Assembly: GCF_026130545.1 (NCBI RefSeq)
Contig: NZ_JAMOIM010000008.1
Coordinates: 153,038 to 217,037, forward strand
Origin: Lichenifustis flavocetrariae
Lineage (GTDB): Bacteria; Pseudomonadota; Alphaproteobacteria; Rhizobiales; Beijerinckiaceae
Direction of reading: 5' to 3'
Length of the DNA stretch: 64,000 nt
Shown here: positions 7,538 through 43,708 of the stretch, in pieces
Position numbering within the stretch: position 1 is the stretch's first letter
Layout: every line of letters begins with the position of its first letter
The notes under the pieces: model-generated
The model's database searches: none
Told to the model about the DNA's origin: nothing
Seen by the model: only the letters and a program-made list of their open reading frames with translations
Program-made: the position numbers and the translations under genes

Positions 7538-8160
7538 TCAGTGATGTCGGCGAAGTGGTCGCTGTCGAAGTCCGGAACGACATCCGGCGTCTGCGCATCG
7601 CCTGTCATTATCCGGCTGAGGGCATTGCGCTCGGCGCCTCGATCGCCTGCTCGGGCCCTTGCCTGACTGTCGTCGGTGTGGGTACGGCCGAGGGGCGGAC
7701 ATGGTTCGATATCGACGCGGCCTGGGAGACGCTCGACAGAACGACGCTCGGGGCGTGGGGAGCGGGCCAAAAAATCAACCTGGAACGATCCCTCAAGGTG
7801 GGCGACGAACTTGGCGGGCATCTGGTCTCGGGTCACGTCGACGGTATCGCGACGATCCTCGATCGTGAGGACCTGGGCAGCACCACCCGATTTACCCTCG
7901 AAGCGCCCCGACACCTGGCGCGGTTCATCGCTGAGAAGGGCTCGGTCGCTCTCGACGGCACGTCGCTGACCGTCAATTCCGTCGAGGATTCGCGTTTCAC
8001 GGTTCTGCTCATCCCTCATTCGCTCGAAGTCACGACGTGGGACGCCCGGCAGAAGGGAGATCGTGTCAACATCGAGATCGACACAATGGCCCGCTACGCG
8101 GCCCGCCTGGCCGAGACGGCAGACTGGGATGCACCGGACCGTCAAGGCAAGGGCGCCTAA
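7522..8160 (+). CDS. ribE: Riboflavin synthase alpha subunit
   Basis: 'MFTGLVSDVGEVVAV' N-terminus and an internal duplicated lumazine-binding repeat; overlaps the ribD stop by 16 nt. Confidence 0.9.
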   Translation: MFTGLVSDVGEVVAVEVRNDIRRLRIACHYPAEGIALGASIACSGPCLTVVGVGTAEGRTWFDIDAAWETLDRTTLGAWGAGQKINLERSLKVGDELGGHLVSGHVDGIATILDREDLGSTTRFTLEAPRHLARFIAEKGSVALDGTSLTVNSVEDSRFTVLLIPHSLEVTTWDARQKGDRVNIEIDTMARYAARLAETADWDAPDRQGKGA

Positions 8161-8178
8161 GGCGCTGCGGAGGGCACG

Positions 8179-8691
8179 TTGCACAACCACTTTCGCATGA
8201 TGGCCGCCTACAATGCTTGGGCCAACGACAGGCTGTATGCCGCCGCAGCAGCGCTGTCGAATGTCGACTACAGGGCGGATCGCGGCGCCTTCTTCAAATC
8301 CGTGCACGGGACGTTCAATCATCTGCTCGTCACCGATCGCATCTGGATGCGTCGTTTTACGGAGATCGGGCCTCAGCCGATCAGGCTCGACGAGATCCTC
8401 TTCGACGACCTGGCTGGGCTGCGTCCGGCGCGGGACGCTGAAGACCGGCGCATTGCAGCCTATGTCGATACGCTACAGGCGCTGGATCTCGACCGCGTCA
8501 TTCGTTACACGCGTGCTTCGACGCCCGAACCGATCGAGCAGCGGCTCGCGCCGGCTTTGGCGCACCTGTTCAACCACCAGACGCATCATCGTGGACAGGT
8601 CCATGCGGTTTTGACCGGCCTGACCGGAAAGGCGCCGGAACTCGATCTGCTGTTCTTCCAGCGCACACCCGCGGGCCGAAGCTTCGGCTGA
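8179..8691 (+). CDS. DinB/YfiT-family damage-inducible metal-dependent protein
   Basis: 'MMAAYNAWANDRLY...HLFNHQTHHRGQVHAVLTGL': DinB_2 His-triad pattern. Confidence 0.65.
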   Translation: MHNHFRMMAAYNAWANDRLYAAAAALSNVDYRADRGAFFKSVHGTFNHLLVTDRIWMRRFTEIGPQPIRLDEILFDDLAGLRPARDAEDRRIAAYVDTLQALDLDRVIRYTRASTPEPIEQRLAPALAHLFNHQTHHRGQVHAVLTGLTGKAPELDLLFFQRTPAGRSFG

Positions 8692-30998: not shown

Positions 30999-32969
30999 AT
31001 GTTTGATCCTGATACTATGAGCGCCGCAGCGATGACGCATGCGTTGGCGCTAGGGCTTGTCTTCCTTTTGGCCCTCCTTGTGCTGAGGGTCGCGTTCGCG
31101 GCCTTCGTCTACATTCCAAACACTCACTTCGGGGTGATAGAACGAAAATGGTGCGCCCAACGCTCACCCGAGCCGTTTGGCCCTATGGCTCTGCGCGGCA
31201 ACGCCGGCTTCCTGCCGGACGTCATCCGCGGCGGCTGGCATGTTCTCGTGCCGTTTCAATACCGGGTCTACAAGCAGCCGCTGATCAACGTCGATCAGAT
31301 CGGCTACCTCGTGGCGCGTGTCGGCCGCACGCTCGAACCCGGTCAAGCCCTGGGTGAATGGCCGGCCGAGGTGCAGGTCGACGATGCCCGCGGCTTCCTG
31401 GAACAGGGAGGTCAGGCCGGACCGCAGCGCCGCATCCTCCGCTCGGGCACCTATGCGATCAACACGGCTCTGTTCGCGGTGATCGGGGACGACACGATCC
31501 ACCATCTGGTCGAGGCCAAGAAGGATGACGCACAATTCCAAGCCCTGTTGCAAGAGCGCGGCGGCTTCACGCCGATCGTCATCAAGGACGACAAGATCGG
31601 TATCGTGACGGTCCAAGACGGGCCGGCCCTGCAGCACGGCGAGATCATCGCGCCGACTGTCGGCACCGATGCCAACAACCCGGCCCATTTTCACAATTCG
31701 TTTCAGGACATCGGCCGCTTTTTGGCGGCTGGTGGGCGGCGCGGGCGGCAGGAGCAGGTGCTGGTTGAAGGCACCTATTTCCTCAATCGCCTGTTCGCGA
31801 CCGTCGAAGTCACGGGCAAGCGTCGCATCGAGATCGGCACCGTTGGCGTGATCAACTCCTTTGTCGGACGCGAAACCGAGGAGGCCATCACGGCCGAAAA
31901 TGGACGCGGCCGCACAGTCGAGGTCGGCCAGCGCGGTATCTGGCGACGGCCGCTCGAACCCGGCAAATATGCCGTCAACCCTTATGCGGCCGAGGTGATC
32001 GACGTGCCGACCACGAACTTTCAGCTGCGCTGGATCGCGGGGGTCGTCAGCGCCGCGGCCCTGCCGAACGGCAAGAGCTATGACAACGACCTCAAGGAGA
32101 TCCCGGTGATCACGCGTGATGCCTTCGAGATCCTGGTGCCGTTGTCGATCGTGGCTCATATCGCGCCCGTCAACGCGCCGCATGTGATCCAGCGCTTCAG
32201 CCAGATCGAGCGGCTGGTGAACCAAACACTCGATCCATTCGTGTCCTCCTATTTCAAGGATACGGCTCAGCGGAACACGTTGCTCGACTTCATCGAGAAG
32301 CGTGTCGAGATCGGCAAGGAGGCCCTGAAGGCCATGAAGGAGCGACTGGCCGAGCATCGGATCGAGATCGAGGAGGTGATGATCGGCACCCCGAAACCCA
32401 CGCCCGGCGACACCCGCATGGAAGCGATGCTCGAACAGCTCCGAGCGCGACAACTCGCCAAGGAGGAACAGAAGACCTTCGTCGACCAGCAGGAGGCCGC
32501 GACGAAGCGCAAGGCTCTCAATGAGCAGCTGGCCTTGGCGGATCAGCAGGCCGGCATCACCAAGTCGGAACTGTCCATCCGCATTGCCGAGAACGAGGGG
32601 GCGGCCGAAACGGCCCGCAAACGTAAGGCGGCCGACGGCATCCGGATCATGGCCGAAGCGGAAGGCTCGGCCGAAACCGCGCGCAAAAGCCGTGCGGCCG
32701 AGGGCATCCGGGTGATGGCGGAAGCCGAGGCCTTCGCGGCCAAGGCCAAGGCCGAGTCGATTGGCGGCACCGACAACCTGATCCGTCAAGCTGTGATCAG
32801 TGCGCTGGTCGAGATTGCACGGGAGACGAAGATGCCGCTCGTGCCTTCAGTGGTGGTCGGCGGCGAGACTGCGAATGGCATCGGCGGTCTTCCCGGACTG
32901 TTGCTTGCGATGGCGGGCAGAGACCTGCTGCCGTCGACCGACTCATTGGCGGAGAGCCGAAGCCGCTGA
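30999..32969 (+). CDS. Flotillin-like SPFH/Band-7 domain protein (YqiK/FloA-like)
   Basis: N-terminal TM helix, SPFH core, and a long Glu/Ala/Lys/Arg-rich coiled-coil tail containing the internal duplication '[21 protein letters not shown] / [21 protein letters not shown]', typical flotillin EA-repeats. Confidence 0.75.
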
Positions 32970-33214: not shown

Positions 33215-33997
33215 ATGCCGATCCGTGTCGTCGTTTGGAATGAATTCATCCACGAGCGTGAGAACGAGGCCGTCAAGTCGATCTACCCTGACGGCATTCA
33301 TGCCGCCATCGCAGCGGCCTTGGGCGGCGGCGACCTGCAGGTTTCGACCGCGACCCTCGATGAACCCGAGCACGGTTTGCCTCAGGGACGGCTCGATGAC
33401 ACCGACGTTCTTCTCTGGTGGGGCCACAAGGCCCATGGGCAAGTGTCCGATGAGGTGGTCGAACGTGTCGCCCAACGTGTCTATGAGGGCATGGGCCTGA
33501 TCGTCCTCCACTCCGGCCATTTCTCCAAGATCTTCAAGCGGCTCATGGGCACGCCCTGTTCGTTGCGGTGGCGCGAGGCGGGTGAGCGCGAGAGGATGTG
33601 GGTGATCAACCCGAGCCACCCCATCACCCAGGGGCTCGGCGCGCAGATCGAGATTCCGAATTCGGAAATGTACGGCGAGCCCTTCCTGGTTCCCGAGCCT
33701 CTGGAGACTATCTTCGTCTCCTGGTACCAGGGCGGTGAAATTTTCCGCTCGGGCCTCACCTACAAGCGGGGCGCCGGGAACATCTTCTATTTCGGCGCGG
33801 GCCACGAAACCTACCCGATCTACCACAATCCGGAGGTCCAGACGGTGCTGCGCAACGCCGTACGCTGGGCCTATAATCCAGTGCCACGCTGGGCCGATGT
33901 CGAGAAGGCGCCGAATCGGCCGATCGATCAGGCCCTGGAGAAAATCGAGGCGCGGGGTCTTTCGCTCCATACGGCTGGCCAGGAGGGATTCCGGTGA
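33215..33997 (+). CDS. thuA: ThuA-like protein (trehalose/3-ketoglycoside utilisation, class-I glutamine amidotransferase-like fold)
   Basis: '[36 protein letters not shown]...[19 protein letters not shown]...[19 protein letters not shown]' closely matches the ThuA family. Confidence 0.8.
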
Positions 33998-35067
33998 GCC
34001 AAGCGCAACGCATCCTGATCCTTGGGACGGGCCACATCGCGCACAAGCATGCCGAGCAATTCGGCTCCAATCCCGGATGTACACTCGTCGCGGCCGTTGA
34101 TGCGAATGGGGAACGAGCCCGCGCCTATGCGTCCAGCTATGGCATTCCGCACGTCTTCGAGGATCTCGAGGCGGCGATCCGCTGGAATGGCTTCGATGCC
34201 GCCGTCAATGCGACGCCCGATGCGGTCCACAAGCCGACCAGCCTCCGGTTGATCGCGGCCGGGAAATCCGTGTTCTGCGAAAAGCCGCTCGCGCTCACCG
34301 AGGTGGATGCCTTCGAGATGACCGAGGCGGCCGAAGCGGCCGGCATCATCGCCATGGTCAATCTCACTTACCGCAATGCCCATGCCATCCAGCGGGCGCG
34401 GCAGATGATCGATGCGGGTGAGATCGGCATCGTACGCCACATCGAAGCGAGTTATTTGCAGAGCTGGCTCACCGCCAGCCATTGGGGCGATTGGCGGACC
34501 GAGGAGCGTTGGTTGTGGCGCCTGTCCACTGCTCATGGCTCCAACGGCGTGCTCGGCGACATCGGCATTCATCTCGTCGACTTCGTGACGTTCGGGACGG
34601 GTCTTGACGTCGCGACGTTGCAGGCGCGTCTGAAAACCTTCGACAAGGCGGAGGGCGGACGCATCGGCGCCTACCGGCTCGACGCCAACGATTCCGTCGC
34701 CGTGACGGCCGAAATGAGCAATGGCGCGCTGGCTTCCATCCACATGACGCGCTTCGCCACCGGCAAGCTCAACGACCTCAACCTCGCCATCTACGGCACG
34801 GGAGGCGCGCTGAAAGTCTGGGCCAACCACCTCGAATCGCGTCTCGACGCCTGCCTGGGCGCGGACATGGAAACGCAAAGTTGGCGGACTCTCCCTTGCC
34901 CGGAGACGCCGCGCAACGAGGCGCGTTTCGTGACGGCGCTACAAGCTGGTCGGAATGGTGACCCTACCTTTCGGCGCGCGGCCGAGATGCAACGTCTGCT
35001 CGACCTTTGCCTGGTATCCGGCAAGACCGGTCACCTGATCGCGGTCCGGGACACGATCCAGGGCTAG
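33994..35067 (+). CDS. thuB: Gfo/Idh/MocA-family oxidoreductase (ThuB-like)
   Basis: Rossmann motif '[17 protein letters not shown]', '[11 protein letters not shown]'; ATGA overlap with thuA. Confidence 0.8.
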
Positions 35068-36300
35068 GGTGACCAAAAAGCGGCTGCCGACGTCATTCGC
35101 TCCTCCCGCGCAGCTGACACGCCCGCCGTGGCGGGCGGCGATCTGCCGGACGAGCGAGAGACCGAGACCCCAGCCGCCGCCCTGTTCGCTACGCCCCAGC
35201 GGGCGATAGAACGGCTCGAAGACCCGCTCCCGTTCCTCGGGCGGAATACCGACGCCCTGATCCGAGACGACGATCTGGGCTTCCGCACCAAGATCGGAGA
35301 CGGCTACATGGACTGGAGCCTTGCCGTGACGGAGGGCATTTTCCAGGAGATTGCGCAGGAGGCGTCGCAGCAGGGCGGCATTGCCGGCGATCTCGACCGC
35401 ATCGCCGCCCACACTCGCCCCCACCCGCGTCGCCTCTTCCGCCGCCAAGCCGAGTAGGTCGACGCGCTCCGTGAGCCCCACGAATGAACTGGGATGGTCG
35501 AGCCGGCTGGAAAGCAGGATTTCGTCCACGAGGACGTCGACTTCCGCCAGGTTGCGCACGATCTCGGCGTGGGTCGCAGGAATTGGATCCTGCAGCCAGA
35601 GTTCCATTCCGATTCGGAGGCGGGCGAGCGGCGAGCGAAGCTCGTGGCTGGCATTGGCCAGCAAGGCCTTCTGCGATGTCAGAAGCAGATCGAGCCGCTC
35701 GGCCGCGCTGTTGAATGTGCGCGCCACGAGGGCGACCTCGTCGCTCCCGCTTTCGTCCACGCGCGCCGCGGTCTCCCCCGCCCCCCACCGCGCCATACCG
35801 GATCGGAGCGCTTCGAGGCGGCGCGTGAGGCGGGCCGTCACCGGAAAGGCCGCGAGGCCGACACCCCCGGCGACCACAATCACGACGGTCAGGATCCGCA
35901 ATCCGGGGTCCTGCAGGGGCGGCCGTAAGCGGGCCACGACAGCCCGCCCGTCCGGCAGGTCGATCCGCATCACGCGGTGAAACTCGTGCTGGGCGGCGCC
36001 GTCTCGCAGAAACACCGGGCGTCCTTCCGCAACGATCAGGTGGCCATCCCTGGCATAAACCGAAACATCCGCTCCGATCTCGTTGCTCAGGTGCCGGACC
36101 GCCTGTGCGATCGTTCCGCTCGGGGTGTCCTGGTCCGGGATCAGTTCGTTGGTGACACGAATCCGGAACGCCCCCAGGCGTTCCTGGGTCGTCTGGCCGA
36201 GCATCCACCAGATGGCTCCCATCGAGACAGCCACGACAACGAGGCTGGCCAGCAGTGTGAGATAAACCTTCCAGAAGAGGCTGCGATGCAGCGCGATCAT
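34939..36300 (-). CDS. Two-component sensor histidine kinase (HAMP-HisKA-HATPase)
   Basis: Two TM segments; H-box 'LANASHELRSPLARLR'; N, G1, G2 boxes ('LRNLLENALRHGK', 'SDQGVGIPPEERERVFEPFYR', 'GGWGLGLSLV'). The 3' end overlaps the convergent thuB by 129 nt. Confidence 0.8.
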   Translation of the reverse strand: MIALHRSLFWKVYLTLLASLVVVAVSMGAIWWMLGQTTQERLGAFRIRVTNELIPDQDTPSGTIAQAVRHLSNEIGADVSVYARDGHLIVAEGRPVFLRDGAAQHEFHRVMRIDLPDGRAVVARLRPPLQDPGLRILTVVIVVAGGVGLAAFPVTARLTRRLEALRSGMARWGAGETAARVDESGSDEVALVARTFNSAAERLDLLLTSQKALLANASHELRSPLARLRIGMELWLQDPIPATHAEIVRNLAEVDVLVDEILLSSRLDHPSSFVGLTERVDLLGLAAEEATRVGASVGGDAVEIAGNAALLRRLLRNLLENALRHGKAPVHVAVSDLGAEAQIVVSDQGVGIPPEERERVFEPFYRPLGRSEQGGGWGLGLSLVRQIAARHGGRVSCAGGANDVGSRFLVTLALDRVPDRDQVTGLAGYQAKVEQTLHLGRAPKGRVTIPTSL

Positions 36301-36998
36301 GGATCGCCGTCCTGTTTCTTGGCGAATACATAGCCGCTGCCGCGAACCGTGATGACGCGGCGTGGGCGCTTTGGATCGTCCTCGATCGCCGAGCGGATGC
36401 GCGAGATATGTACGTCGATCGAGCGGTCGAACGCCTCCAGCTCCTCACCCTTGACGAGATCGAGGATGCGCTCGCGGTTGAGTACCCGCCCGGCATTCTG
36501 CGCCAGGGCGACAAGAAGATCGAATTGGTAGCTCGTGAGCAGTCGGTCCTCGCCGTCGATCCTGACCCCGCGTGATCCTCGATCGATCTGCAGGCGGCCA
36601 AACGACAGGACCGTATCGGCCACGGCCTGGGTGCCGCGATTGCGCCGCAGGATGGCACGCAACCGGGCGAGAAGTTCGCGCGGGTTGAACGGTTTGGGCA
36701 GATAATCGTCGGCCCCGATCTCCAATCCGACGATCCTGTCCGTGTCGTCGCCCCGAGCGGTCAGCATCAGGATCGGGATATCCGAGCGCATCCGGATCTG
36801 GCGGCACACTTCGAAGCCGTCGAGATCGGGCAGCATGATGTCCAGGATGATCGCTTGGAAGTCCGTGCGGCCGATGACGTCCAGGGCGCCGCGGCCGGTG
36901 AGGCTGCGGTCGACCCTGTATCCGGCAGCCGAGAGATATTCCGACACCATGCCGGCCAGACGCGCATCATCATCGACCAGAAGCAGATGCTCAGTCAT
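36297..36998 (-). CDS. OmpR/CpxR-family response regulator
   Basis: Receiver 'LLLVDDD...ILDIMLPDLDGFEVC...LMLTARGDDTDRIVGLEIGADDYLPKPFNPRELLARLRAILRR' plus winged-helix C-terminus; 4-nt overlap with the HK gene. Confidence 0.85.
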   Translation of the reverse strand: MTEHLLLVDDDARLAGMVSEYLSAAGYRVDRSLTGRGALDVIGRTDFQAIILDIMLPDLDGFEVCRQIRMRSDIPILMLTARGDDTDRIVGLEIGADDYLPKPFNPRELLARLRAILRRNRGTQAVADTVLSFGRLQIDRGSRGVRIDGEDRLLTSYQFDLLVALAQNAGRVLNRERILDLVKGEELEAFDRSIDVHISRIRSAIEDDPKRPRRVITVRGSGYVFAKKQDGDP

Positions 36999-37022
36999 CG
37001 GCGCGGGTGTCCGAAATGACGA

Positions 37023-37682
37023 TCAGCCCGGGTTGCGGTCGGCGCCGTGATCCGGATCGGCATGATCCTGATCCTCCGGGCCATGACGATGCATGCCGCC
37101 TTCCATATTGCCCCCATCGTCCCGTCCCTCCCGGTGCCACGGGCCCATGCCGCGAGCCATCATGGCTTCGGCGCGATCCGCGAGCGCCGCGCGCTGATCG
37201 GGCGTGAGCTGATCGGCCGAGTCGAGTACCATGCCGACGATGGTTTTGCTCTTCGCATCGAATTTGGCCACTTGTTCGGCACGAAGCTTTTCGACGGCGG
37301 CGCGATCGATGGTCGGCGCCCGCAGGAGGTCGAGCACCTGCTTGCGCATGGCCATGCGGTCTGGGCCGTCCTCGGTCATGCTGCCGAAGCCGGTTGCGAT
37401 GATGTCGTGAACCTTGTCTTCCTGGACCGTCGTGGCTCCGACAGAGTCCAGGGCACCGTGCACCATGCGCTGGATGTGCTCGAGACGGTGGCCTGCCCCC
37501 CAGACGACATGTCCGGTCACGGTCGCCGCATAGGCAAAGCCACCGGCTCCCAGCCCCAATCCGCTGACGAGCGCGCCCGCGAGCAGAACCGGGCGCTGCC
37601 ATCTGGGTCGGCGCGCCGACGCGACATCGCGGGAGCCTGATGCTTCAGGTCCACTTGGTTGATGTTCGAGTGCCTCACTCAT
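37023..37682 (-). CDS. Periplasmic Spy/CpxP-family (LTxxQ motif) protein with Met/His-rich tail
   Basis: From the internal Met 'MSEALEH': signal-anchor-like hydrophobic segment, 'LTPDQRAAL' (LTxxQ), and C-terminal 'MMARGMGPWH...MEGGMHRHGPEDQDHADPDHG' (Met/His/Asp-rich). First gene of the RR-HK operon. Confidence 0.55.
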   Translation of the reverse strand: MSEALEHQPSGPEASGSRDVASARRPRWQRPVLLAGALVSGLGLGAGGFAYAATVTGHVVWGAGHRLEHIQRMVHGALDSVGATTVQEDKVHDIIATGFGSMTEDGPDRMAMRKQVLDLLRAPTIDRAAVEKLRAEQVAKFDAKSKTIVGMVLDSADQLTPDQRAALADRAEAMMARGMGPWHREGRDDGGNMEGGMHRHGPEDQDHADPDHGADRNPG

Positions 37683-37842
37683 GTTACTCTCCTGGCATTG
37701 GCATCGTCTCGGTGCCTGACGCCAAGTTAAAGGTCCGCGGTTTCCGCCTTCCGGCCGCAATGTAAAGTTCCATGAAGCGATTGTGGTGCGCGACGGCCGT
37801 GAGCCGAAGGCTCTTCAACGCCTGTCGCATCGGTTGCAACCT

Positions 37843-38547
37843 TCAGGCCGTGCGGCCCGGTCGAGCCGCGACCCAGATCATGTGGCGCGCGCCCTTCTTG
37901 CCGTGCGCGCGGACAGTGTGTTCTGCCACTATAAACCCTGCTCTGGCGAGCAATTGACTAAAGGCGCGATCGGGGAAAGCCGACCACACCGCGAGGGCTC
38001 CGCCGGGCGCAAGCGCTGTCCAGGCGGCGCGCAGTCCGGCCAGGCTGTAGAGCGCTTCGTTACCGTCTCGAGTCAGACCTTGAGGTCCATTGTCAACGTC
38101 GAGCAGGATCGCGTCATAGATGCCGCGCGCGGCCCGGATCGGCTGGGCGACATCGGCCTGATGGACCCGGACACGGGGGTCCGCAAGCGCGTCACCCGAC
38201 AGATGAGCCAAGGGGCCTCGGACCCATCCCACGACGGCCGTGACGAGCTCGGCCACCTCCACCGAAGCGGCGGGGCCAAGCAGGTCCAGAGCGGCGCGAA
38301 GCGTGAAGCCCATGCCCAGACCGCCGATGAGGAGACGAAAGCTGGTTCCGCGCGTCAGCGCATCCGCGCATCCCAATCGCGCCAGCGCTTCCTCCGAACC
38401 ACGCATGCGGCTCCCCATCAGCAATTCGCGTCCGAGATTGATGGCGAATTCGGTGCCCCGCTGCATCAATCGGAGTTCCTCCGTGCTGCCGGGGATCGGG
38501 GCCGCTTCGATCAAGGTCCAATACTGCACGCGCGCTCCTGGTGTCCG
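37843..38547 (-). CDS. Spermidine-synthase-like (PABS fold) methyltransferase-family protein
   Basis: 'FRLLIGGLGMGFTLRAALDLLGP...VEVAELV' is a Rossmann SAM/dcSAM-binding GxGxG; '...ILLDVDNGP' matches the spermidine synthase acidic motif. Start very uncertain: the ORF extends to 38712 with no convincing Met. Confidence 0.45.
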   Translation of the reverse strand, partial: RTPGARVQYWTLIEAAPIPGSTEELRLMQRGTEFAINLGRELLMGSRMRGSEEALARLGCADALTRGTSFRLLIGGLGMGFTLRAALDLLGPAASVEVAELVTAVVGWVRGPLAHLSGDALADPRVRVHQADVAQPIRAARGIYDAILLDVDNGPQGLTRDGNEALYSLAGLRAAWTALAPGGALAVWSAFPDRAFSQLLARAGFIVAEHTVRAHGKKGARHMIWVAARPGRTA

Positions 38548-38590
38548 CTGCCGGCAAAGCCCATGACATCCTGAGGGGCCGACGTCCAAC

Positions 38591-39325
38591 TCAGGGCAGG
38601 GCAGCCCGCAAGGCGCGAATCGCGTCGAAGCTCGTCGCGAAACATCGATCACCGGCAAAGCCCCAGCGGACGATGTCCGGCGGCGGCAAGGCGACGACCT
38701 TGCCGGAGGCATGCACCTCCGCGACGCCGGTGCGGTGGACGAGAGCCGTCAGGTTCTCCGGACGTATGCCGCCGCCGGCCATGATGGCGATGCGCCCCCG
38801 CGCTTGAATGACCAGCGCCGCAAGGCCATCGCTGCCCGATGGGGCATCGGATGCGCCGCCTGAGGTGAGGATCCGCTCGAAGCCGAGTGCGACGGCAAGC
38901 TCCAGCGCTACGCTCTTGCTCGGCGTGAGATCGAATGCGCGGTGCAGCGTCCGTCCGAGCGTGCCGGCCTCGGCGCACAAATCGGCGAGGGTCTGCTCAT
39001 CGAGCGAATGGTTGGGCCGCGAGGCACCGATCACCACGCCGGCGAGGCCAGCCCGACGAACGGCCGTGATGTCGGCACGCATCGCGGCAAGATCTTGCGT
39101 GCCGTAGACGAAGTCGCCCTGTCGCGGGCGGATCATGGCGTAGACCGGCACGGGCGAGTCGCTTGCCAGCGCAATCAGGCCGGGGGACGGCGTCAATCCG
39201 CCGACATCGAGGCTCGAACACAGTTCGATGCGGTCGGCCCCGGCCGCGATGGCGATCGCCAGACCGTCCGGCGTGTCGACGCAGATTTCCAAACGCGTTC
39301 GAGACGAAGGGGGGACGGGAATCAT
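38591..39325 (-). CDS. cutC: Copper homeostasis protein CutC
   Basis: 'RLEICVDTPDGLAIAIAAGADRIELCSSLDVGGLTPSPGL' is typical of the CutC TIM-barrel family. Confidence 0.85.
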   Translation of the reverse strand: MIPVPPSSRTRLEICVDTPDGLAIAIAAGADRIELCSSLDVGGLTPSPGLIALASDSPVPVYAMIRPRQGDFVYGTQDLAAMRADITAVRRAGLAGVVIGASRPNHSLDEQTLADLCAEAGTLGRTLHRAFDLTPSKSVALELAVALGFERILTSGGASDAPSGSDGLAALVIQARGRIAIMAGGGIRPENLTALVHRTGVAEVHASGKVVALPPPDIVRWGFAGDRCFATSFDAIRALRAALP

Positions 39326-39487
39326 GTGACTTCATGCAAGCCGGCGCGGAAAACCAGCATCGAGACATCCATTGCGGCATCCTTGACATGACATTCAAGG
39401 GGAAGGACCACAAGCGAACAAAGATCCGTGTGCATGGTTGCGTCAGTCAGGGCGACCGCCCTCCAGCGCACCCGACCTGCGAGCGAC

Positions 39488-40456
39488 ATGAGCGGACCCG
39501 AATCCATTCCCGCGCGGCCGGTTGGTTCGGCCTCTCTCCAGCCCCGGTTGGGCTTCTGCGCCGATGTCGGCGGTTCCTTCATCAAATTCGCTTCCGTGCA
39601 ACCGGACGGAACCTGTGTCGAGATGGAGAAATGCCCGACCCCGTCGAAGGATTGGGCGGAGTTCTGCGCCGTTTTGCAGACGCTCTGCGCGGGGCGTGAC
39701 CCACGCCTCGCCCTCTCGCTGTCGATCGCCGGTGTGGTCGATCCCGACGCCGGTCTCGCCTTGAGCGCCAATATCCCGTGTATCAGCGGCCATCGGCTGG
39801 GCGCGGAACTCACTGCCGCGCTCGGACGCCCCGTGCTGGTCGCCAATGACGCGGATTGCTTCGTCTTGGCCGAGGCCCTGCGCGGGGCGGGGGCGGGCCG
39901 ACGCATCGTGTTCGGGATCATTCTCGGGACAGGTGTCGGTGGCGGGCTGGTCGTCGAAGGTCGAATCATCGAGGGGGAGGGCGGCATTACAGGGGAGTGG
40001 GGGCACGGCCCGATCCTCGGCTCGCTCCGGGTTGGCGCGGCTGAACTCCCGTCCATGCCGTGCGGATGCGGCCAAAGCGGTTGTCTCGATACGCTGGGAA
40101 GCGCGCGGGGCTTGGAAAGGATCGACACATTCCTGCACGGCGGATCCCGCGACAGTCTTCGCATCATCGAAGCCTGGGAGCGTGCAGAAGCCGCGGCCAG
40201 CCAGACGGTGAGCACGTGGCTCGGCGTCGTGGCCGGCCCCCTCGCCATGGTGCTCAACCTGACGGGCGCCTCGATCGTGCCGGTCGGCGGCGGCTTGTCG
40301 AACAGCCGTGCGCTGGTCGACGCGCTTGACGCTGCCGTTCGGGCTTGCGTTCTGCGGCGCTCCGAGACGGCGATCGTGGTTCCGTCGGAGCTTGGCGCCG
40401 ATGCCGGCCTGCTCGGCGCGGCCTTGCGGCTTGTGGATCGTGCTTCGACGCTTTGA
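39488..40456 (+). CDS. ROK-family sugar kinase (N-acetylglucosamine kinase NagK-like)
   Basis: 'VLVANDADCF...GIILGTGVGGGLVVEGRIIEGEGGITGEWGHG...PCGCGQSGCLDT': ROK signature with the Cys-rich zinc motif. Confidence 0.65.
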   Translation: MSGPESIPARPVGSASLQPRLGFCADVGGSFIKFASVQPDGTCVEMEKCPTPSKDWAEFCAVLQTLCAGRDPRLALSLSIAGVVDPDAGLALSANIPCISGHRLGAELTAALGRPVLVANDADCFVLAEALRGAGAGRRIVFGIILGTGVGGGLVVEGRIIEGEGGITGEWGHGPILGSLRVGAAELPSMPCGCGQSGCLDTLGSARGLERIDTFLHGGSRDSLRIIEAWERAEAAASQTVSTWLGVVAGPLAMVLNLTGASIVPVGGGLSNSRALVDALDAAVRACVLRRSETAIVVPSELGADAGLLGAALRLVDRASTL

Positions 40457-40463
40457 ACGTCGT

Positions 40464-41027
40464 TCAGGTCGTCGGGCGGTTCAGATCTTTGTCGTCACGG
40501 CGCAGTTCGTCATGCACCCACGTCAGGATCGTCTCGATGGCCAACGGCCTGCTTGTGTCGACGTCGAAGACCGGCGCCCGGCCTGTCGGGGTGGCGCAGC
40601 CGTTCAGCACGATCAGTTCGGGGATGTAGGCTTCTCCCGGGTGTCCAGGACTGCGATCTCCCAGGCGCGAGCGGTAGCGCTCGGCCACCACCGAGTCCGG
40701 CGCATGGCACCAGATCTCGATGACGCGGCCGATGCCGGCCGCCGCGAGATGGCGATCGAGAACTTCGAGCGGCTGAAAGCCGAACCAGGCATCGATCACG
40801 ACCGTTGTCTTGTCGGGCCAATCCCCGATGGCGTTGAAGATGATCGCATAGCTGGCGCGTCCGAGCTTGCGATTGTGCTCCCGATCTCCCGTTCCGAAAT
40901 GCTCGAACAGAGGATCCTTGACGGTATCGAGCGTCATCAGCGGGCATCCCAGTCGATCCGCGATGCCGTGCGCCACGGTGCTCTTGCCGGACGCCGGTAC
41001 GCCATTGACCAGAATGGCCGTCTTCAC
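40464..41027 (-). CDS. P-loop NTPase/kinase (AAA_33-like) of unknown specificity
   Basis: Walker A 'LVNGVPASGKSTVA' near the N-terminus when started at GTG 'VKTAIL'. That GTG overlaps the upstream ROK gene stop (GTGA), suggesting translational coupling. Confidence 0.5.
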   Translation of the reverse strand: MKTAILVNGVPASGKSTVAHGIADRLGCPLMTLDTVKDPLFEHFGTGDREHNRKLGRASYAIIFNAIGDWPDKTTVVIDAWFGFQPLEVLDRHLAAAGIGRVIEIWCHAPDSVVAERYRSRLGDRSPGHPGEAYIPELIVLNGCATPTGRAPVFDVDTSRPLAIETILTWVHDELRRDDKDLNRPTT

Positions 41028-41956
41028 CGCCGCGCCTCGGGGAGCGTTCGAGCCACGAGGCCGGTCGGCTCGGGTTCGATCATATGCTCGATCAGTGCCG
41101 AGACCGCGCCGCCGATGACGCCGGCATCGTCGCCGAGCTGTGCAGCCGCGATCGGACACTGATACCAGGGCGACAAAGCCGGGGCTCGCGCCAGGGCGCG
41201 AAGCGCGGCGCTTCCCAAGCCGCCGCCCAGCAAAACGAGTTCGGGATCGACCGCGGCCACCATGCTGTCGATCGCGGCCCTGAGTGGAAACACCCAGGCG
41301 TCGAGAAGTTGCCCGACCAGGACATCGCCAGCCGCATCACGCTCGAACAACGTGTCGGCCCGCGTCCCTTTCGGCAAGCCGGCTTCCGCGATCAGGCGGC
41401 CGAGCGCCGTGCCCGAACTCGTCGTTTCGACACAGCCGCGGCGCCCGCAAGCGCAGGGGAGCCCATCGTGCCGGACCGTGATATGGCCAAGTTGCCCGGC
41501 GGTCTCGCGCCCCCGCACGATCTTGCCATCGAGAACCACGGCACCGCCGATGCCCGTGCCGATCGTGAACATGACCACGTCGTCGGCACCCTGCGCCGCC
41601 CCGGTCGCCATCTCGGCCACGAGGGCCATGTTGCAATCATTGTCGATCACGACCGGCTTCTCGATTGCCTGTTCGATCTGTTCGGCCAGGCGCGCCCCCG
41701 CAAGATCGAGATAGCCACCCGACAGAACGGTGCGGGTCCGTGCGTCGACGCGACCCGGCACACCGATGCCGATGCCGGCGACGGTCGCATCGTCGAGCTG
41801 CCGACACAAGGCAACGATGCGGCTCAAAACCAGGGCAGGATCCCGTGCGATCGGCTCGGCGTGCCAGTCGAGGATCTCGCCAGAGCTCGAGACCCGCCCG
41901 GCCCGGAGATTGGTGCCGCCGATGTCGATGCCGATCGCCGTTGCGGTGGTGCGCAT
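41024..41956 (-). CDS. ROK-family glucokinase/sugar kinase
   Basis: 'IGIDIGGTNLRAG', 'NDCNMALVAE', 'IGTGIGGAVVLDGKIVRGRETAGQLGHITV...CACGRRGCVETTSSG': complete ROK signature. Confidence 0.75.
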   Translation of the reverse strand: MRTTATAIGIDIGGTNLRAGRVSSSGEILDWHAEPIARDPALVLSRIVALCRQLDDATVAGIGIGVPGRVDARTRTVLSGGYLDLAGARLAEQIEQAIEKPVVIDNDCNMALVAEMATGAAQGADDVVMFTIGTGIGGAVVLDGKIVRGRETAGQLGHITVRHDGLPCACGRRGCVETTSSGTALGRLIAEAGLPKGTRADTLFERDAAGDVLVGQLLDAWVFPLRAAIDSMVAAVDPELVLLGGGLGSAALRALARAPALSPWYQCPIAAAQLGDDAGVIGGAVSALIEHMIEPEPTGLVARTLPEARR

Positions 41957-41984
41957 GGCGGCCTCCTTGATGTAATGCCGGCCG

Positions 41985-42902
41985 TCAGGCTGCGGCGCGG
42001 CCCTGGGAGGAACGGCAGCGCTCCACCACGGATTGAATCTGGCGCAGGCGCGGCACGGCGATCTTGGTCAGACGCTCCCGTGTTACCGCGCGGTCGAGCG
42101 AGATGCAGTCCTTCCAGAGCGCGCGGCCCGCAATGACTCCGGAGGCGCCGTTTTGCATCGCGATCTCGACCTGGCCCACGAAGGTCTCATGGTCGACGCC
42201 GGCCGACAGAACGGCCCATGGCACCTCACCGCACATGGCGGAAATTCGGGCGCAGGTTTCTGCGTTGCCGGGGTAGGGCAGCTTAAGGACCTTGGAGCCG
42301 AGATCGAGGCAGATCTTCGTACCGTCTTCGATGAGCTTCGGGAAGGCTGCGAGATAGTCGGCCTTGCTTTCTCCCGGCAGCTCGTAGGTGAGGAATTCGA
42401 CCACGAGCAGAAGGTCCTCGCGGCCGAAATCCTCGATGCAACGGCGCAGGATCTCGATGTTGGCGGAATTCGCGTCCGGACGGTCCGAGCGGAGGTAGAC
42501 CATGATCTTGCCGCCGGTGCCGCCCAATGCCCGCACGCGCCGTGCATCGATGCCCGGCACGAGCTTGGACAATCGATAACCCTCCGGCGTCGTGTCGAAG
42601 CCAGAGGCATCGAGCCCGATCAGCAGAGCCGTATCGCGGGCCAGCACGCCCGTATCCACCACGCCCGGCACCGCGCAGACCGGATCGAGGAGGATGCAGG
42701 ATGCTTGGCTGGCCAGGAAGCGCGTCAGGTCGGCCTTGGTTTCGCCGAGCATCGCTTCGGTAATCTTGCTTTCGTCGGCCGGGCTGGCCGCCATGATCTT
42801 GCGCATGCCGCCGCGCTGGTCGGCCGCGATCACCATCATGGCCCCGTCGCGGCCGCAGATCTGCTGATAGCCGCGGAATTCGGCTGTGGTCATCTTGGTC
42901 AT
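41985..42902 (-). CDS. LacD-family class I aldolase (tagatose-1,6-bisphosphate / sulfofructose-phosphate aldolase-like)
   Basis: 'VIAADQRGGMRKIM', 'ILLDPVCA', 'GGKIMVYLRSD', 'LLLVVEFLTY', 'LSAGVDHETFVGQVEIAMQNGASGVIAGRALW' parallel the conserved LacD/YihT blocks. Confidence 0.65.
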   Translation of the reverse strand: MTKMTTAEFRGYQQICGRDGAMMVIAADQRGGMRKIMAASPADESKITEAMLGETKADLTRFLASQASCILLDPVCAVPGVVDTGVLARDTALLIGLDASGFDTTPEGYRLSKLVPGIDARRVRALGGTGGKIMVYLRSDRPDANSANIEILRRCIEDFGREDLLLVVEFLTYELPGESKADYLAAFPKLIEDGTKICLDLGSKVLKLPYPGNAETCARISAMCGEVPWAVLSAGVDHETFVGQVEIAMQNGASGVIAGRALWKDCISLDRAVTRERLTKIAVPRLRQIQSVVERCRSSQGRAAA

Positions 42903-42949
42903 GAGATCATCCAGAGTTCGCCCGGCCCGAGGTCCGGGTCAAGGAGGGG

Positions 42950-43708
42950 TCAGCCGCCGATCATCAGCTTCACGACCTCGTCGTGATTGGTGTCCTGGAT
43001 CCGGCGTTCACCCGCGAGGCTGCCACGCAGAAGGACGATGATGCGGTCCGAGACGGCAAAAATGTCTTGCAGATTGTGTGAGATGAAAATGACGCCGCGC
43101 CCTTGGTCCTTGAGCATTTTGATCAGGGAGATCACCTTGCGCTGCTCGGGCACGCCAAGCGCGGCGGTCGGCTCGTCCATCAGGATCACGCGCGCGTTCC
43201 AGTAGATGGCGCGCCCGATCGCGACGGCCTGACGCTGCCCGCCCGAGAACCGCCCGACCGGCGCGTCGAGCCGGTCGACGTGAAAGTCGAGCGTCGCCAT
43301 CGTCTCCTTGGCGGCGACCGCCATGGCCCGTCTGTCAAGCACCGGCAGGAACCCAAAGGCACGCCGCATCGGCTCGCGGCCGAGGAAGATGTTGGCGCCG
43401 ATCGACAGATTGTCGGCCAGGGCGAGGTCTTGATAGATCGTCTCGATCCCCTCGCGCCGTGCAGCCTCCGGGGTTGCAAACGAGACCGGCTTTCCGTCGA
43501 GCCGGATCTCGCCGCCATCGGCGGCATAGACGCCGGAGATCATCTTGGTGAGGGTCGATTTGCCGGCGCCATTGTCGCCCGCGAGCGCCACCACTTCACC
43601 GGGATGGAGCTGCAGGGAGACGCCCTTGAGTGCCTCGACGCCACCGAACCGCTTGGACACGCTACGCACGTCCAAGATGGGCTGGCTGGATGCTGACACG
43701 GCGCTCAT
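42950..43708 (-). CDS. Sugar ABC transporter ATP-binding protein
   Basis: Walker A 'GDNGAGKST', signature 'FSGGQRQ', Walker B 'ILMDEPTAAL'; single ATPase domain ~250 aa. Confidence 0.85.
   Translation of the reverse strand: MSAVSASSQPILDVRSVSKRFGGVEALKGVSLQLHPGEVVALAGDNGAGKSTLTKMISGVYAADGGEIRLDGKPVSFATPEAARREGIETIYQDLALADNLSIGANIFLGREPMRRAFGFLPVLDRRAMAVAAKETMATLDFHVDRLDAPVGRFSGGQRQAVAIGRAIYWNARVILMDEPTAALGVPEQRKVISLIKMLKDQGRGVIFISHNLQDIFAVSDRIIVLLRGSLAGERRIQDTNHDEVVKLMIGG

Follow-up and report, generated by a model that had tools for sequence, protein, structure and literature searches.

The genes SMb21562, SMb21561 and SMb21560 of Sinorhizobium meliloti were called CpxP, CpxR and CpxA homologues by Santos et al. 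(2010) (PMC2912261). In a tolC mutant, the three genes were induced 69-, 27- and 14-fold, respectively, which was read as a Cpx-like response, and an E. coli-type CpxR box was noted upstream (PMC2912261). The family was thereby already noticed as Cpx-like in S. meliloti. Beyond this one transcriptome observation, it is functionally uncharacterised, and no functional study of this accessory-protein family was found in the literature on PF13801 and on the name 'periplasmic heavy metal sensor'. The present analysis concerns an operon of Lichenifustis flavocetrariae, which lies in a 64-kb stretch of DNA (hereafter the window) and encodes a CpxP-like accessory protein (the LTXXQ protein), an OmpR-family response regulator and a sensor histidine kinase. 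As judged from sequence, the operon is the orthologue of SMb21562–SMb21561–SMb21560. It is probably an envelope-signalling module of three components that stands on its own and regulates itself; the LTXXQ protein, once exported, would feed back on the kinase. Gene structure, homology, synteny, a conserved operator and a family-wide tail were observed in this analysis. The module is cleanly defined by its accessory protein, regulator, kinase and conserved operator, and it is common in Hyphomicrobiales.

Gene Organization and Conservation of the Operon

Five genes occupy the interval 34939-39325, every one on the minus strand (Table 1; ORF, open reading frame), and the gene positions of an earlier note on this DNA were confirmed. 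A gap of 24 nucleotides (nt) separates the LTXXQ gene from the regulator gene, and the regulator and kinase genes overlap by 4 nt (ATGA). These three tightly packed genes are one operon, as the earlier note had proposed in placing the first gene ahead of an OmpR/CpxR-like regulator and a kinase. The operon is set apart from the spermidine-synthase-like gene and cutC by 160 nt of intergenic DNA, in which a conserved operator of its own is located.

Table 1. Positions in the window of the operon, its control elements, the segments of the LTXXQ protein and the two adjoining genes.
Feature	Position	Strand	Remarks
cutC	38591-39325	minus	PF03932, 251.6 bits
Spermidine-synthase-like gene	3' end 37843	minus	weak NCBIfam matches (37 bits vs a cutoff of 472)
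Tandem direct-repeat operator TTCATGGAACTTTAC (TTYAY-N5-TTTAC)	37762..37776	minus	presumed site of the operon's own regulator
GAAAC block	37740..37744	minus	begins 17 nt past the operator's last base (37762); near-invariant in an ungapped alignment of 52 distinct upstream regions
TAACTT, putative -10 (TAnnnT)	37724..37729	minus	in register with the conserved 'gcTAgc.T' of the orthologues
LTXXQ/CpxP-like protein gene	37023..37682 (ORF 37023-37760)	minus	219 amino acids plus stop
N-region	residues 1-30	minus	variable, positively charged
Hydrophobic segment	residues 31-53, nt 37524-37592	minus	Gly/Ala-rich, ends AYA-A
Helical LTXXQ core	residues 63-176, nt 37155-37496	minus	
Disordered tail (predicted)	residues 177-219, nt 37026-37154	minus	Gly/Asp/His/Pro/Met
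OmpR-family response regulator	36297..36998	minus	233 amino acids, receiver and winged-helix domains; PF00072, PF00486
HAMP/HisKA/HATPase sensor histidine kinase	34939..36300	minus	453 amino acids, two transmembrane helices; Pfam

The conservation of the module was evaluated in 82 related loci, namely 80 from a genome collection, one on pSymB of S. meliloti and one on a plasmid of Methylobacterium nodulans. In 75 of the 82, close homologues of the window regulator and kinase come after the LTXXQ gene, in this order and on the same strand. Five loci end too early, at a contig end; of the remaining 77, which have sufficient sequence downstream, 75 show the order and two are exceptions. This gene order is kept far beyond chance. 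The carriers are mostly Hyphomicrobiales with some Betaproteobacteria, and include Lichenihabitans, Roseiarcus, Labrys, Methylocapsa, Methylobacterium, Sinorhizobium, Rhizobium, Chelativorans and some Burkholderiales. Clustering of the neighbouring ORFs across the loci gave no further conserved gene, the next-best cluster being present in 12 loci.

The S. meliloti operon has the same three genes in identical order on one strand. SMb21560 is 50% identical to the window kinase over the full length, the sensor domain included. The two regulators are highly similar (333 bits), and the accessory proteins share 34-41% identity in the core. The graded induction in the tolC mutant (69 > 27 > 14) fits a single promoter ahead of the accessory gene. 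The emmABC genes were also considered as the S. meliloti orthologue and were rejected; EmmB-EmmC and CpxA-CpxR (SMb21560/61) are separate systems in a 2023 paper (PMC10659215).

The LTXXQ Accessory Protein

The true start of the LTXXQ protein is the ATG at 37682, with AGGAGA before it, and the resulting product is identical to the L. flavocetrariae protein named 'Spy/CpxP family protein refolding chaperone' at NCBI. The protein scored 31.9 bits against PF13801 (Metal_resist), above the threshold of 29.2, and 24.0 bits against PF07813 (LTXXQ), narrowly below the threshold of 24.3. The S. meliloti accessory protein passes both Pfam models (71.3 and 60.0 bits), whereas the window protein is marginal (24 and 32 bits). 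In an hhalign comparison (E = 2.3e-5, probability 76%), 124 columns of the family profile were aligned with E. coli CpxP, with the LTXXQ motifs of CpxP matched to ATxxQ and LTPxQ of the family and LTEHQ of CpxP opposite ATTVQ. The second motif is intact (LTPDQ): L159 never varies, and conservation reaches at least 90% at T160, P161 and Q163. In the first motif, which is degenerate (ATTVQ), A83 and Q87 are invariant. The AlphaFold2 model of the core (residues 63-176) was helical and confident, with block means of the predicted local distance difference test (pLDDT) mostly above 80 and a maximum of 93, and structure searches returned only weak matches to Spy and CpxP. The PF13801 match and the alignment to CpxP place the LTXXQ protein in the Spy/CpxP/LTXXQ superfamily and uphold the assignment made by the earlier note from the peptide LTPDQRAAL.

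Approximately 290 homologues of the LTXXQ protein were found at 90% clustering. At 50% clustering, the accessory-protein profile search gave 2,597 representatives with E <= 1e-3 and 1,530 with E <= 1e-10. The common architecture of the family comprises an N-region of ~28 residues, a hydrophobic segment of ~23 residues with GAGGLA.AA, the helical core and a low-complexity tail. The hydrophobic segment (Kyte-Doolittle 19-residue maximum 1.8) and an AxA motif were present in 118 of 120 homologues. The LTXXQ protein is hence predicted to be exported, and it may be either anchored via the hydrophobic segment or cleaved after AYA-A. A Tat (twin-arginine translocation) signal was rejected as a general feature of the family, as the twin-arginine pair occurs in only 62 of the 120 homologues and is out of register in the window protein.

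Two membrane segments were unusually well conserved for their kind: GAGGLA.AA in the hydrophobic segment (37524-37592, ~90% conserved) and RLF..YLTLL in the first transmembrane helix (TM1) of the kinase (residues 7-35, 36196-36282), which is at least 90% conserved in 57 orthologues. The unusual conservation of the former and the near-invariance of the latter hint that the hydrophobic segment is retained and touches kinase TM1 within the membrane.

These observations bear on whether the LTXXQ protein may be an output only, that is, a Spy-like periplasmic chaperone made on demand that does not signal back to the kinase. Membership in the Spy/CpxP/ZraP chaperone superfamily is in accord with such a role, as is a family gene in one locus (L009) that has no two-component system (TCS) beside it. 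Nevertheless, the linkage of the first gene to the TCS is near-obligate (75/77), and the conserved GAGGLA.AA and RLF..YLTLL segments suggest a physical partnership, which makes a pure output role improbable. The orphan family member of L009 lies at 7911-8576 and is followed by no regulator or kinase in 5.5 kb downstream, to the contig end. It apparently corresponds to homologue P0035, whose tail ends in Arg-Asp repeats (RDRDRDRDRD).

Operator and Promoter Region

The search for a regulator-binding motif upstream of the operon, which the earlier note had recommended, was successful. The box TTCAT-N5-TTTAC was found ~94 nt upstream of the LTXXQ gene. Read in reverse complement, it corresponds to the CpxR-type GTAAA-N5-GTAAA, with one half-site degenerate in the window, whereas the S. 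meliloti box is a perfect TTTAC-N5-TTTAC at ~ -95. Among 61 orthologous upstream regions, 54 contain the pattern TTYAY-N5-TT(T/C)AC, in most cases 85-101 nt ahead of the start codon. The operator has a single match in the window, with 0.02 expected, and a relaxed search of the same 64 kb gave no credible second site. The conserved box suggests autoregulation by the operon's own regulator.

A generic sigma-70 and terminator scan returned no promoter at the locus and only chance-level terminators. The promoter assignment is tentative for this reason: TAACTT may be the -10 element according to its conservation across species, in which case the centre of the repeat would be near -52. The GAAAC block sits between the regulator box and the putative -10, and it could be a third half-site, the site of another factor or an unusual promoter element.

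Regulator and Kinase

The regulator is 40% identical to E. coli CpxR, and it was under every NCBIfam equivalog cutoff, with the best score for OmpR (233.2 vs 331) and 175.8 vs 341 for CpxR. The kinase scored 113.6 bits vs 486 for CpxA, and its best match was RstB (149.9 vs 478). The BLASTP alignment of the kinase with CpxA was limited to residues 183-397, i.e., the catalytic core, and the sensor domain was not aligned. The heavy-metal TCS subfamilies (CusRS/CopRS/CzcRS; TIGR01386, TIGR01387) were not reached either, with 173.3 vs 279.2 for the regulator and 110.1 vs 292.55 for the kinase. The periplasmic domain of the kinase has ~100 amino acids (residues 36-135), and no His, Met or Cys in this domain was conserved at 50% or more among the 57 orthologues.

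An electrostatic model has reportedly been proposed for E. coli CpxP. Charge complementarity between accessory protein and kinase found no support at this locus, as the net charge was -3 for the accessory core and 0 for the kinase sensor.

The Flexible Tail and a Possible Metal or pH Input

The peptides LTPDQRAAL and MMARGMGPWH...MEGGMHRHGPEDQDHADPDHG are both present in the LTXXQ protein, and the tail had been described in the earlier note as strikingly Met/His/Asp-rich. The peptide and the family-wide occurrence of a flexible tail with His and Met agree with this description, but the tail consists mainly of Gly, Asp and Pro. In the 39 residues 181-219 of the window protein, there are 8 Gly, 7 Asp, 5 His, 4 Pro, 4 Arg and only 2 Met. 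The window tail is a His/Asp-rich variant and is better called Gly/Asp/His-rich than Met-rich. A tail of 21-46 residues was present in 117 of the 120 homologues, with a composition of 30% Gly, 15% Asp, 13.5% Pro, 7.7% Arg, 7.0% His, 5.4% Met and 4.3% Trp; Gly, Asp and Pro together account for 59%. Cys is essentially missing, with one residue across the 117 tails and none in the window tail. His is absent from 13 of the 117, and M-x0-3-M motifs occur in 31. The recurring core of the tail is roughly GPWGG(W)RHGPMMDG...PD..PDKD, and the tail had a pLDDT of ~50, which predicts disorder.

A Pfam search of the tail gave no copper-binding domain of the CopC, CusF or PcoE type. The trait of the family is thus a flexible segment of Gly, Asp and Pro interspersed with His, Met and Trp, with no recognisable copper site. 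The likening of the tail to CopC/CusF-like copper-binding tails in the earlier note is not borne out: the segment has neither such a Pfam domain nor any Cys, and disorder is predicted for it. The position of the segment varies. S. meliloti and many distant members have a similar Gly/Met/His stretch between the membrane segment and the core instead; in S. meliloti, this is FGFGMGRFGMGGHVMHAHMGGGGFMEH, followed after the core by a short C-terminus, RRGHGRW, whereas the stretch is C-terminal in the window protein. Of 129 full-length representatives examined across the wider family, 62 contain a 20-residue stretch with at least 6 His plus Met.

The ends of the tails also recur among homologues P0001-P0120, as ...GPD.GPDKD (PDKD in 19 of 117) and, in the subgroup of the window protein, as ...NPG. 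Conservation at the very end of a disordered tail could mark a tag for recognition, e.g., by a PDZ-domain protease.

The genes near the module were searched for homologues of copA, cusCFBA, cueO, cueR and fieF in 87 sequences (the related loci and the window). No RND or CDF gene was found, P-type ATPases were present in three sequences, and a copper cluster was present in one. In one Aquamicrobium locus (L081, 10402-12405), a P-type ATPase gene is located just downstream of the kinase gene.

A metal or pH input through the tail is possible from its composition. In a metal-responsive system of the ZraP–ZraSR type, the tail would bind Zn, Ni or Cu(II), alter the action of the LTXXQ protein on the kinase and report metal excess in the periplasm. 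PF13801 also holds ZraP (82 bits) and CnrX (91 bits), and ZraP is the zinc-dependent chaperone of the ZraSR system (PMC4987338). The composition of the tail resembles both ends of ZraP; the window tail and the 'GMGGMGWGGWRHHHMM'-type tails of its relatives are similar to the ZraP ends HGGHGMW and GAGMGMGYGGCGGGGHMGMGHW. Segments rich in His and Met are found repeatedly in the wider family, on either the N- or the C-terminal side of the core, and the Ensifer sp. B1-9 locus (L056, 1-5800) carries genes for a copA-like P-type ATPase, a cueR-like MerR protein, a multicopper oxidase and a cusF-like protein directly upstream of the module. However, the family profile had no detectable similarity to E. 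coli ZraP (hhalign; probability 0.1%) or to CnrX (probability 1%). The core has no conserved ligand set, as its only invariant His is H92, which is Trp in S. meliloti, and HxxxH occurs only in the closest relatives. The Gly/Asp/Pro-dominated composition of the tail, with 7% His and 5.4% Met and with 13 tails that have no His, also argues against a metal response, as does a kinase sensor with no conserved His, Met or Cys. Furthermore, metal-resistance genes were not enriched nearby (no RND or CDF gene; P-type ATPases in 3 of 87), and the sole expression datum, which comes from the tolC mutant in S. meliloti, is not metal-related. A metal-responsive module is possible but unlikely on this evidence.

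Protonation of the tail provides another explanation, in which the charge of its His and Asp residues would shift between about pH 4 and 6.5, alter the interaction with the kinase and report acidification of the periplasm. The 7% His and 15% Asp of the tail fit this proposal. The names or sample labels of the source organisms of many homologues (lichen-associated genera, 'bog' and SPRUCE metagenome bins, Roseiarcus and Methylocapsa) suggest acidic peat or lichen habitats in our reading, and the interchange of the segment between N- and C-terminal positions points to a flexible physicochemical sensor, not to a folded site. An acid sensor is nonetheless quite improbable, because the argument is purely compositional and rhizobial members from neutral soils carry the module too.

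A further possibility combines these elements. The membrane-anchored LTXXQ protein may be the real ligand-binder, with the GAGGLA.AA helix packed on kinase TM1 and the flexible segment capturing metal or protons, thereby switching a kinase that has no site of its own. This proposal is a tentative one and is unlikely to be correct as it stands. If it were true, a ZraP/CnrX-style sensing logic would be grafted on an OmpR-type TCS that is widespread in Hyphomicrobiales, many of them seemingly from acidic soil, peat or lichen. Should the flexible His/Met-rich segment bind metals or protons, the family would serve well as a model of the way in which accessory proteins confer ligand specificity on sensor kinases.

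The Neighbouring cutC Gene and Copper

The interval was presented in the earlier note as a candidate copper-responsive module, on the basis of the adjacent cutC and the CopC/CusF-like reading of the tail. In this case, the module would be a copper-specific envelope-stress sensor tied to cutC, with the tail as a CopC/CusF-like Cu site. cutC is located ~900 bp upstream, and a single close relative, with 85% identity, has the same arrangement; His and Met are present in the tail; and the Cpx response of E. coli is known to react to copper (e.g., PMC11005409). However, neither cutC nor the spermidine-synthase-like gene was found within 8 kb of the module in any of the 82 other loci, and both adjoin it only in the one close relative. 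The module has its own promoter region, and cutC belongs with genes for ROK kinases, an aldolase and an ABC transporter. The neighbourhood of cutC is a local accident, and cutC is not part of the system. Moreover, Cu(I)-type M-x0-3-M motifs are present in only 31 of 117 tails, and the window tail is His/Asp-rich and does not point to Cu(I). The TCS is far below the CusRS/CopRS-type NCBIfam cutoffs (173 vs 279 and 110 vs 292), the kinase sensor has no conserved His, Met or Cys, and copper genes occur at 1 of 87 loci. A copper-specific sensor is hence very improbable, and neither the link through cutC nor the copper-responsive character proposed for the locus is supported.

The copper-sensitivity phenotype of E. 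coli cutC, after which the gene was named, is due to loss of the small RNA MicL, which is encoded inside cutC, and there is no direct evidence of copper binding by bacterial CutC (PMC4102768). In the window, cutC is part of a block at 38591-43708 that comprises ROK kinase genes at 39428-40456 (plus) and 41024-41956 (minus), an AAA_33 kinase-like gene, a DeoC/LacD aldolase gene at 41985-42902 and an ABC ATPase gene at 42950-43708. This neighbourhood hints at a carbohydrate-related rather than a copper-related role for CutC. The ROK-AAA-ROK-CutC block is kept in a close relative, L085.

The spermidine-synthase-like gene gave no match in a Pfam search. Its product was called as 225 amino acids in the closest relative vs a 289-amino-acid ORF in the window, indicating that the true start is internal to this ORF. 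At the other end of the operon, the 3' end of the kinase gene (34939-35067) overlaps a convergent GFO/IDH/MocA oxidoreductase gene (33994-35067, plus) by 129 nt, and the last ~30 residues of the kinase have no counterpart in the S. meliloti orthologue. A gene at 30999-32969 encodes a 656-residue SPFH/Band-7 protein with a long, repetitive Ala/Glu/Arg-rich C-terminal region. This gene is located ~2 kb past the 3' end of the operon, beyond two plus-strand genes (ThuA and the oxidoreductase), and its product is also envelope-associated.

Proposed Mechanism

The preferred reading of the locus, a self-regulating envelope-signalling module, would work as follows. The kinase would phosphorylate the OmpR-type regulator, which would bind the TTCAT-N5-TTTAC box upstream of the first gene and switch on the whole operon. 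The CpxP-homologous helical protein would be the first and most strongly induced product and would be exported to the periplasmic face, where it may act back on the periplasmic or membrane part of the kinase as an inhibitor or co-sensor, giving negative feedback; it is probably a chaperone too. Envelope damage would lift this control when the accessory protein is titrated, unfolded or degraded. The flexible Gly/Asp/Pro/His/Met/Trp tail may tune the loop by binding divalent metal ions or protons. In which direction the feedback runs, what kind of signal is sensed and what part the tail plays are inferred.

Several points weigh against this mechanism. For Lichenifustis, it is drawn solely from sequence and from the expression of an orthologue. 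The regulator and kinase are not CpxR and CpxA orthologues by the NCBIfam cutoffs, and the kinase and CpxA cannot be aligned in their sensor domains; the inhibition of CpxA by CpxP would therefore be transferred to this kinase by analogy only. The recurrence of Gly/His/Met-rich segments across the family (62/129) could mean that metal, and not envelope stress in general, is the primary cue.

Comparison with Known Systems

The ZraP–ZraS–ZraR system, which is a zinc-associated envelope stress system of E. coli and Salmonella, shares with the window operon a small periplasmic PF13801 protein that has flexible ends rich in Gly, Met, His and Trp and is genetically tied to a TCS. The two systems differ in that ZraR belongs to the sigma-54 enhancer-binding proteins and zraP and zraSR are divergently arranged, whereas the window regulator is of the OmpR type and the genes are co-directional.

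CnrX of the CnrX–CnrY–CnrH nickel/cobalt sensor of Cupriavidus metallidurans is also a PF13801 protein, in which a helical periplasmic domain comes after an N-terminal membrane segment. Its signal goes to an anti-sigma factor and an extracytoplasmic function (ECF) sigma factor, whereas the partner of the window protein is the kinase of a TCS. The metal ligands of CnrX, His42, His46, Glu63 and His119, have no conserved counterpart in the LTXXQ family. NCBI uses the label 'periplasmic heavy metal sensor' for the M. nodulans family member and 'periplasmic nickel sensor CnrX' for CnrX, and in our reading the former name derives from the latter. This label for family members and the label 'copper homeostasis protein' for CutC imply metal roles that are unsupported by the present evidence.

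CpxP of Pseudomonas aeruginosa (PA14_22740) is likewise an LTXXQ protein beside a CpxR-type regulator with a CpxR box in the promoter (PMC5063474). It differs in lineage and arrangement, neither a Gly/His/Met tail nor a long N-region is reported for it, and it is likened here by description only.

The Cpx system of E. coli has in common with the window operon an LTXXQ helical periplasmic accessory protein, an OmpR-family regulator and a GTAAA-N5-GTAAA-type box before the accessory gene, which is the chief target of its own system. The E. coli genes cpxP and cpxRA are transcribed in opposite directions, whereas the accessory gene heads the operon in the window. The first LTXXQ motif of the window protein is degenerate, the sensor domain of its kinase is unrelated by sequence, and CpxP of E. 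coli carries a short signal peptide that can be cleaved and lacks a Gly/His/Met tail. The regulator is most similar to OmpR and falls under the cutoffs, the kinase is CpxA-like only in the catalytic core, and cpxP is divergent; the system is therefore not the orthologue of Cpx, and by analogy it appears to work like Cpx.

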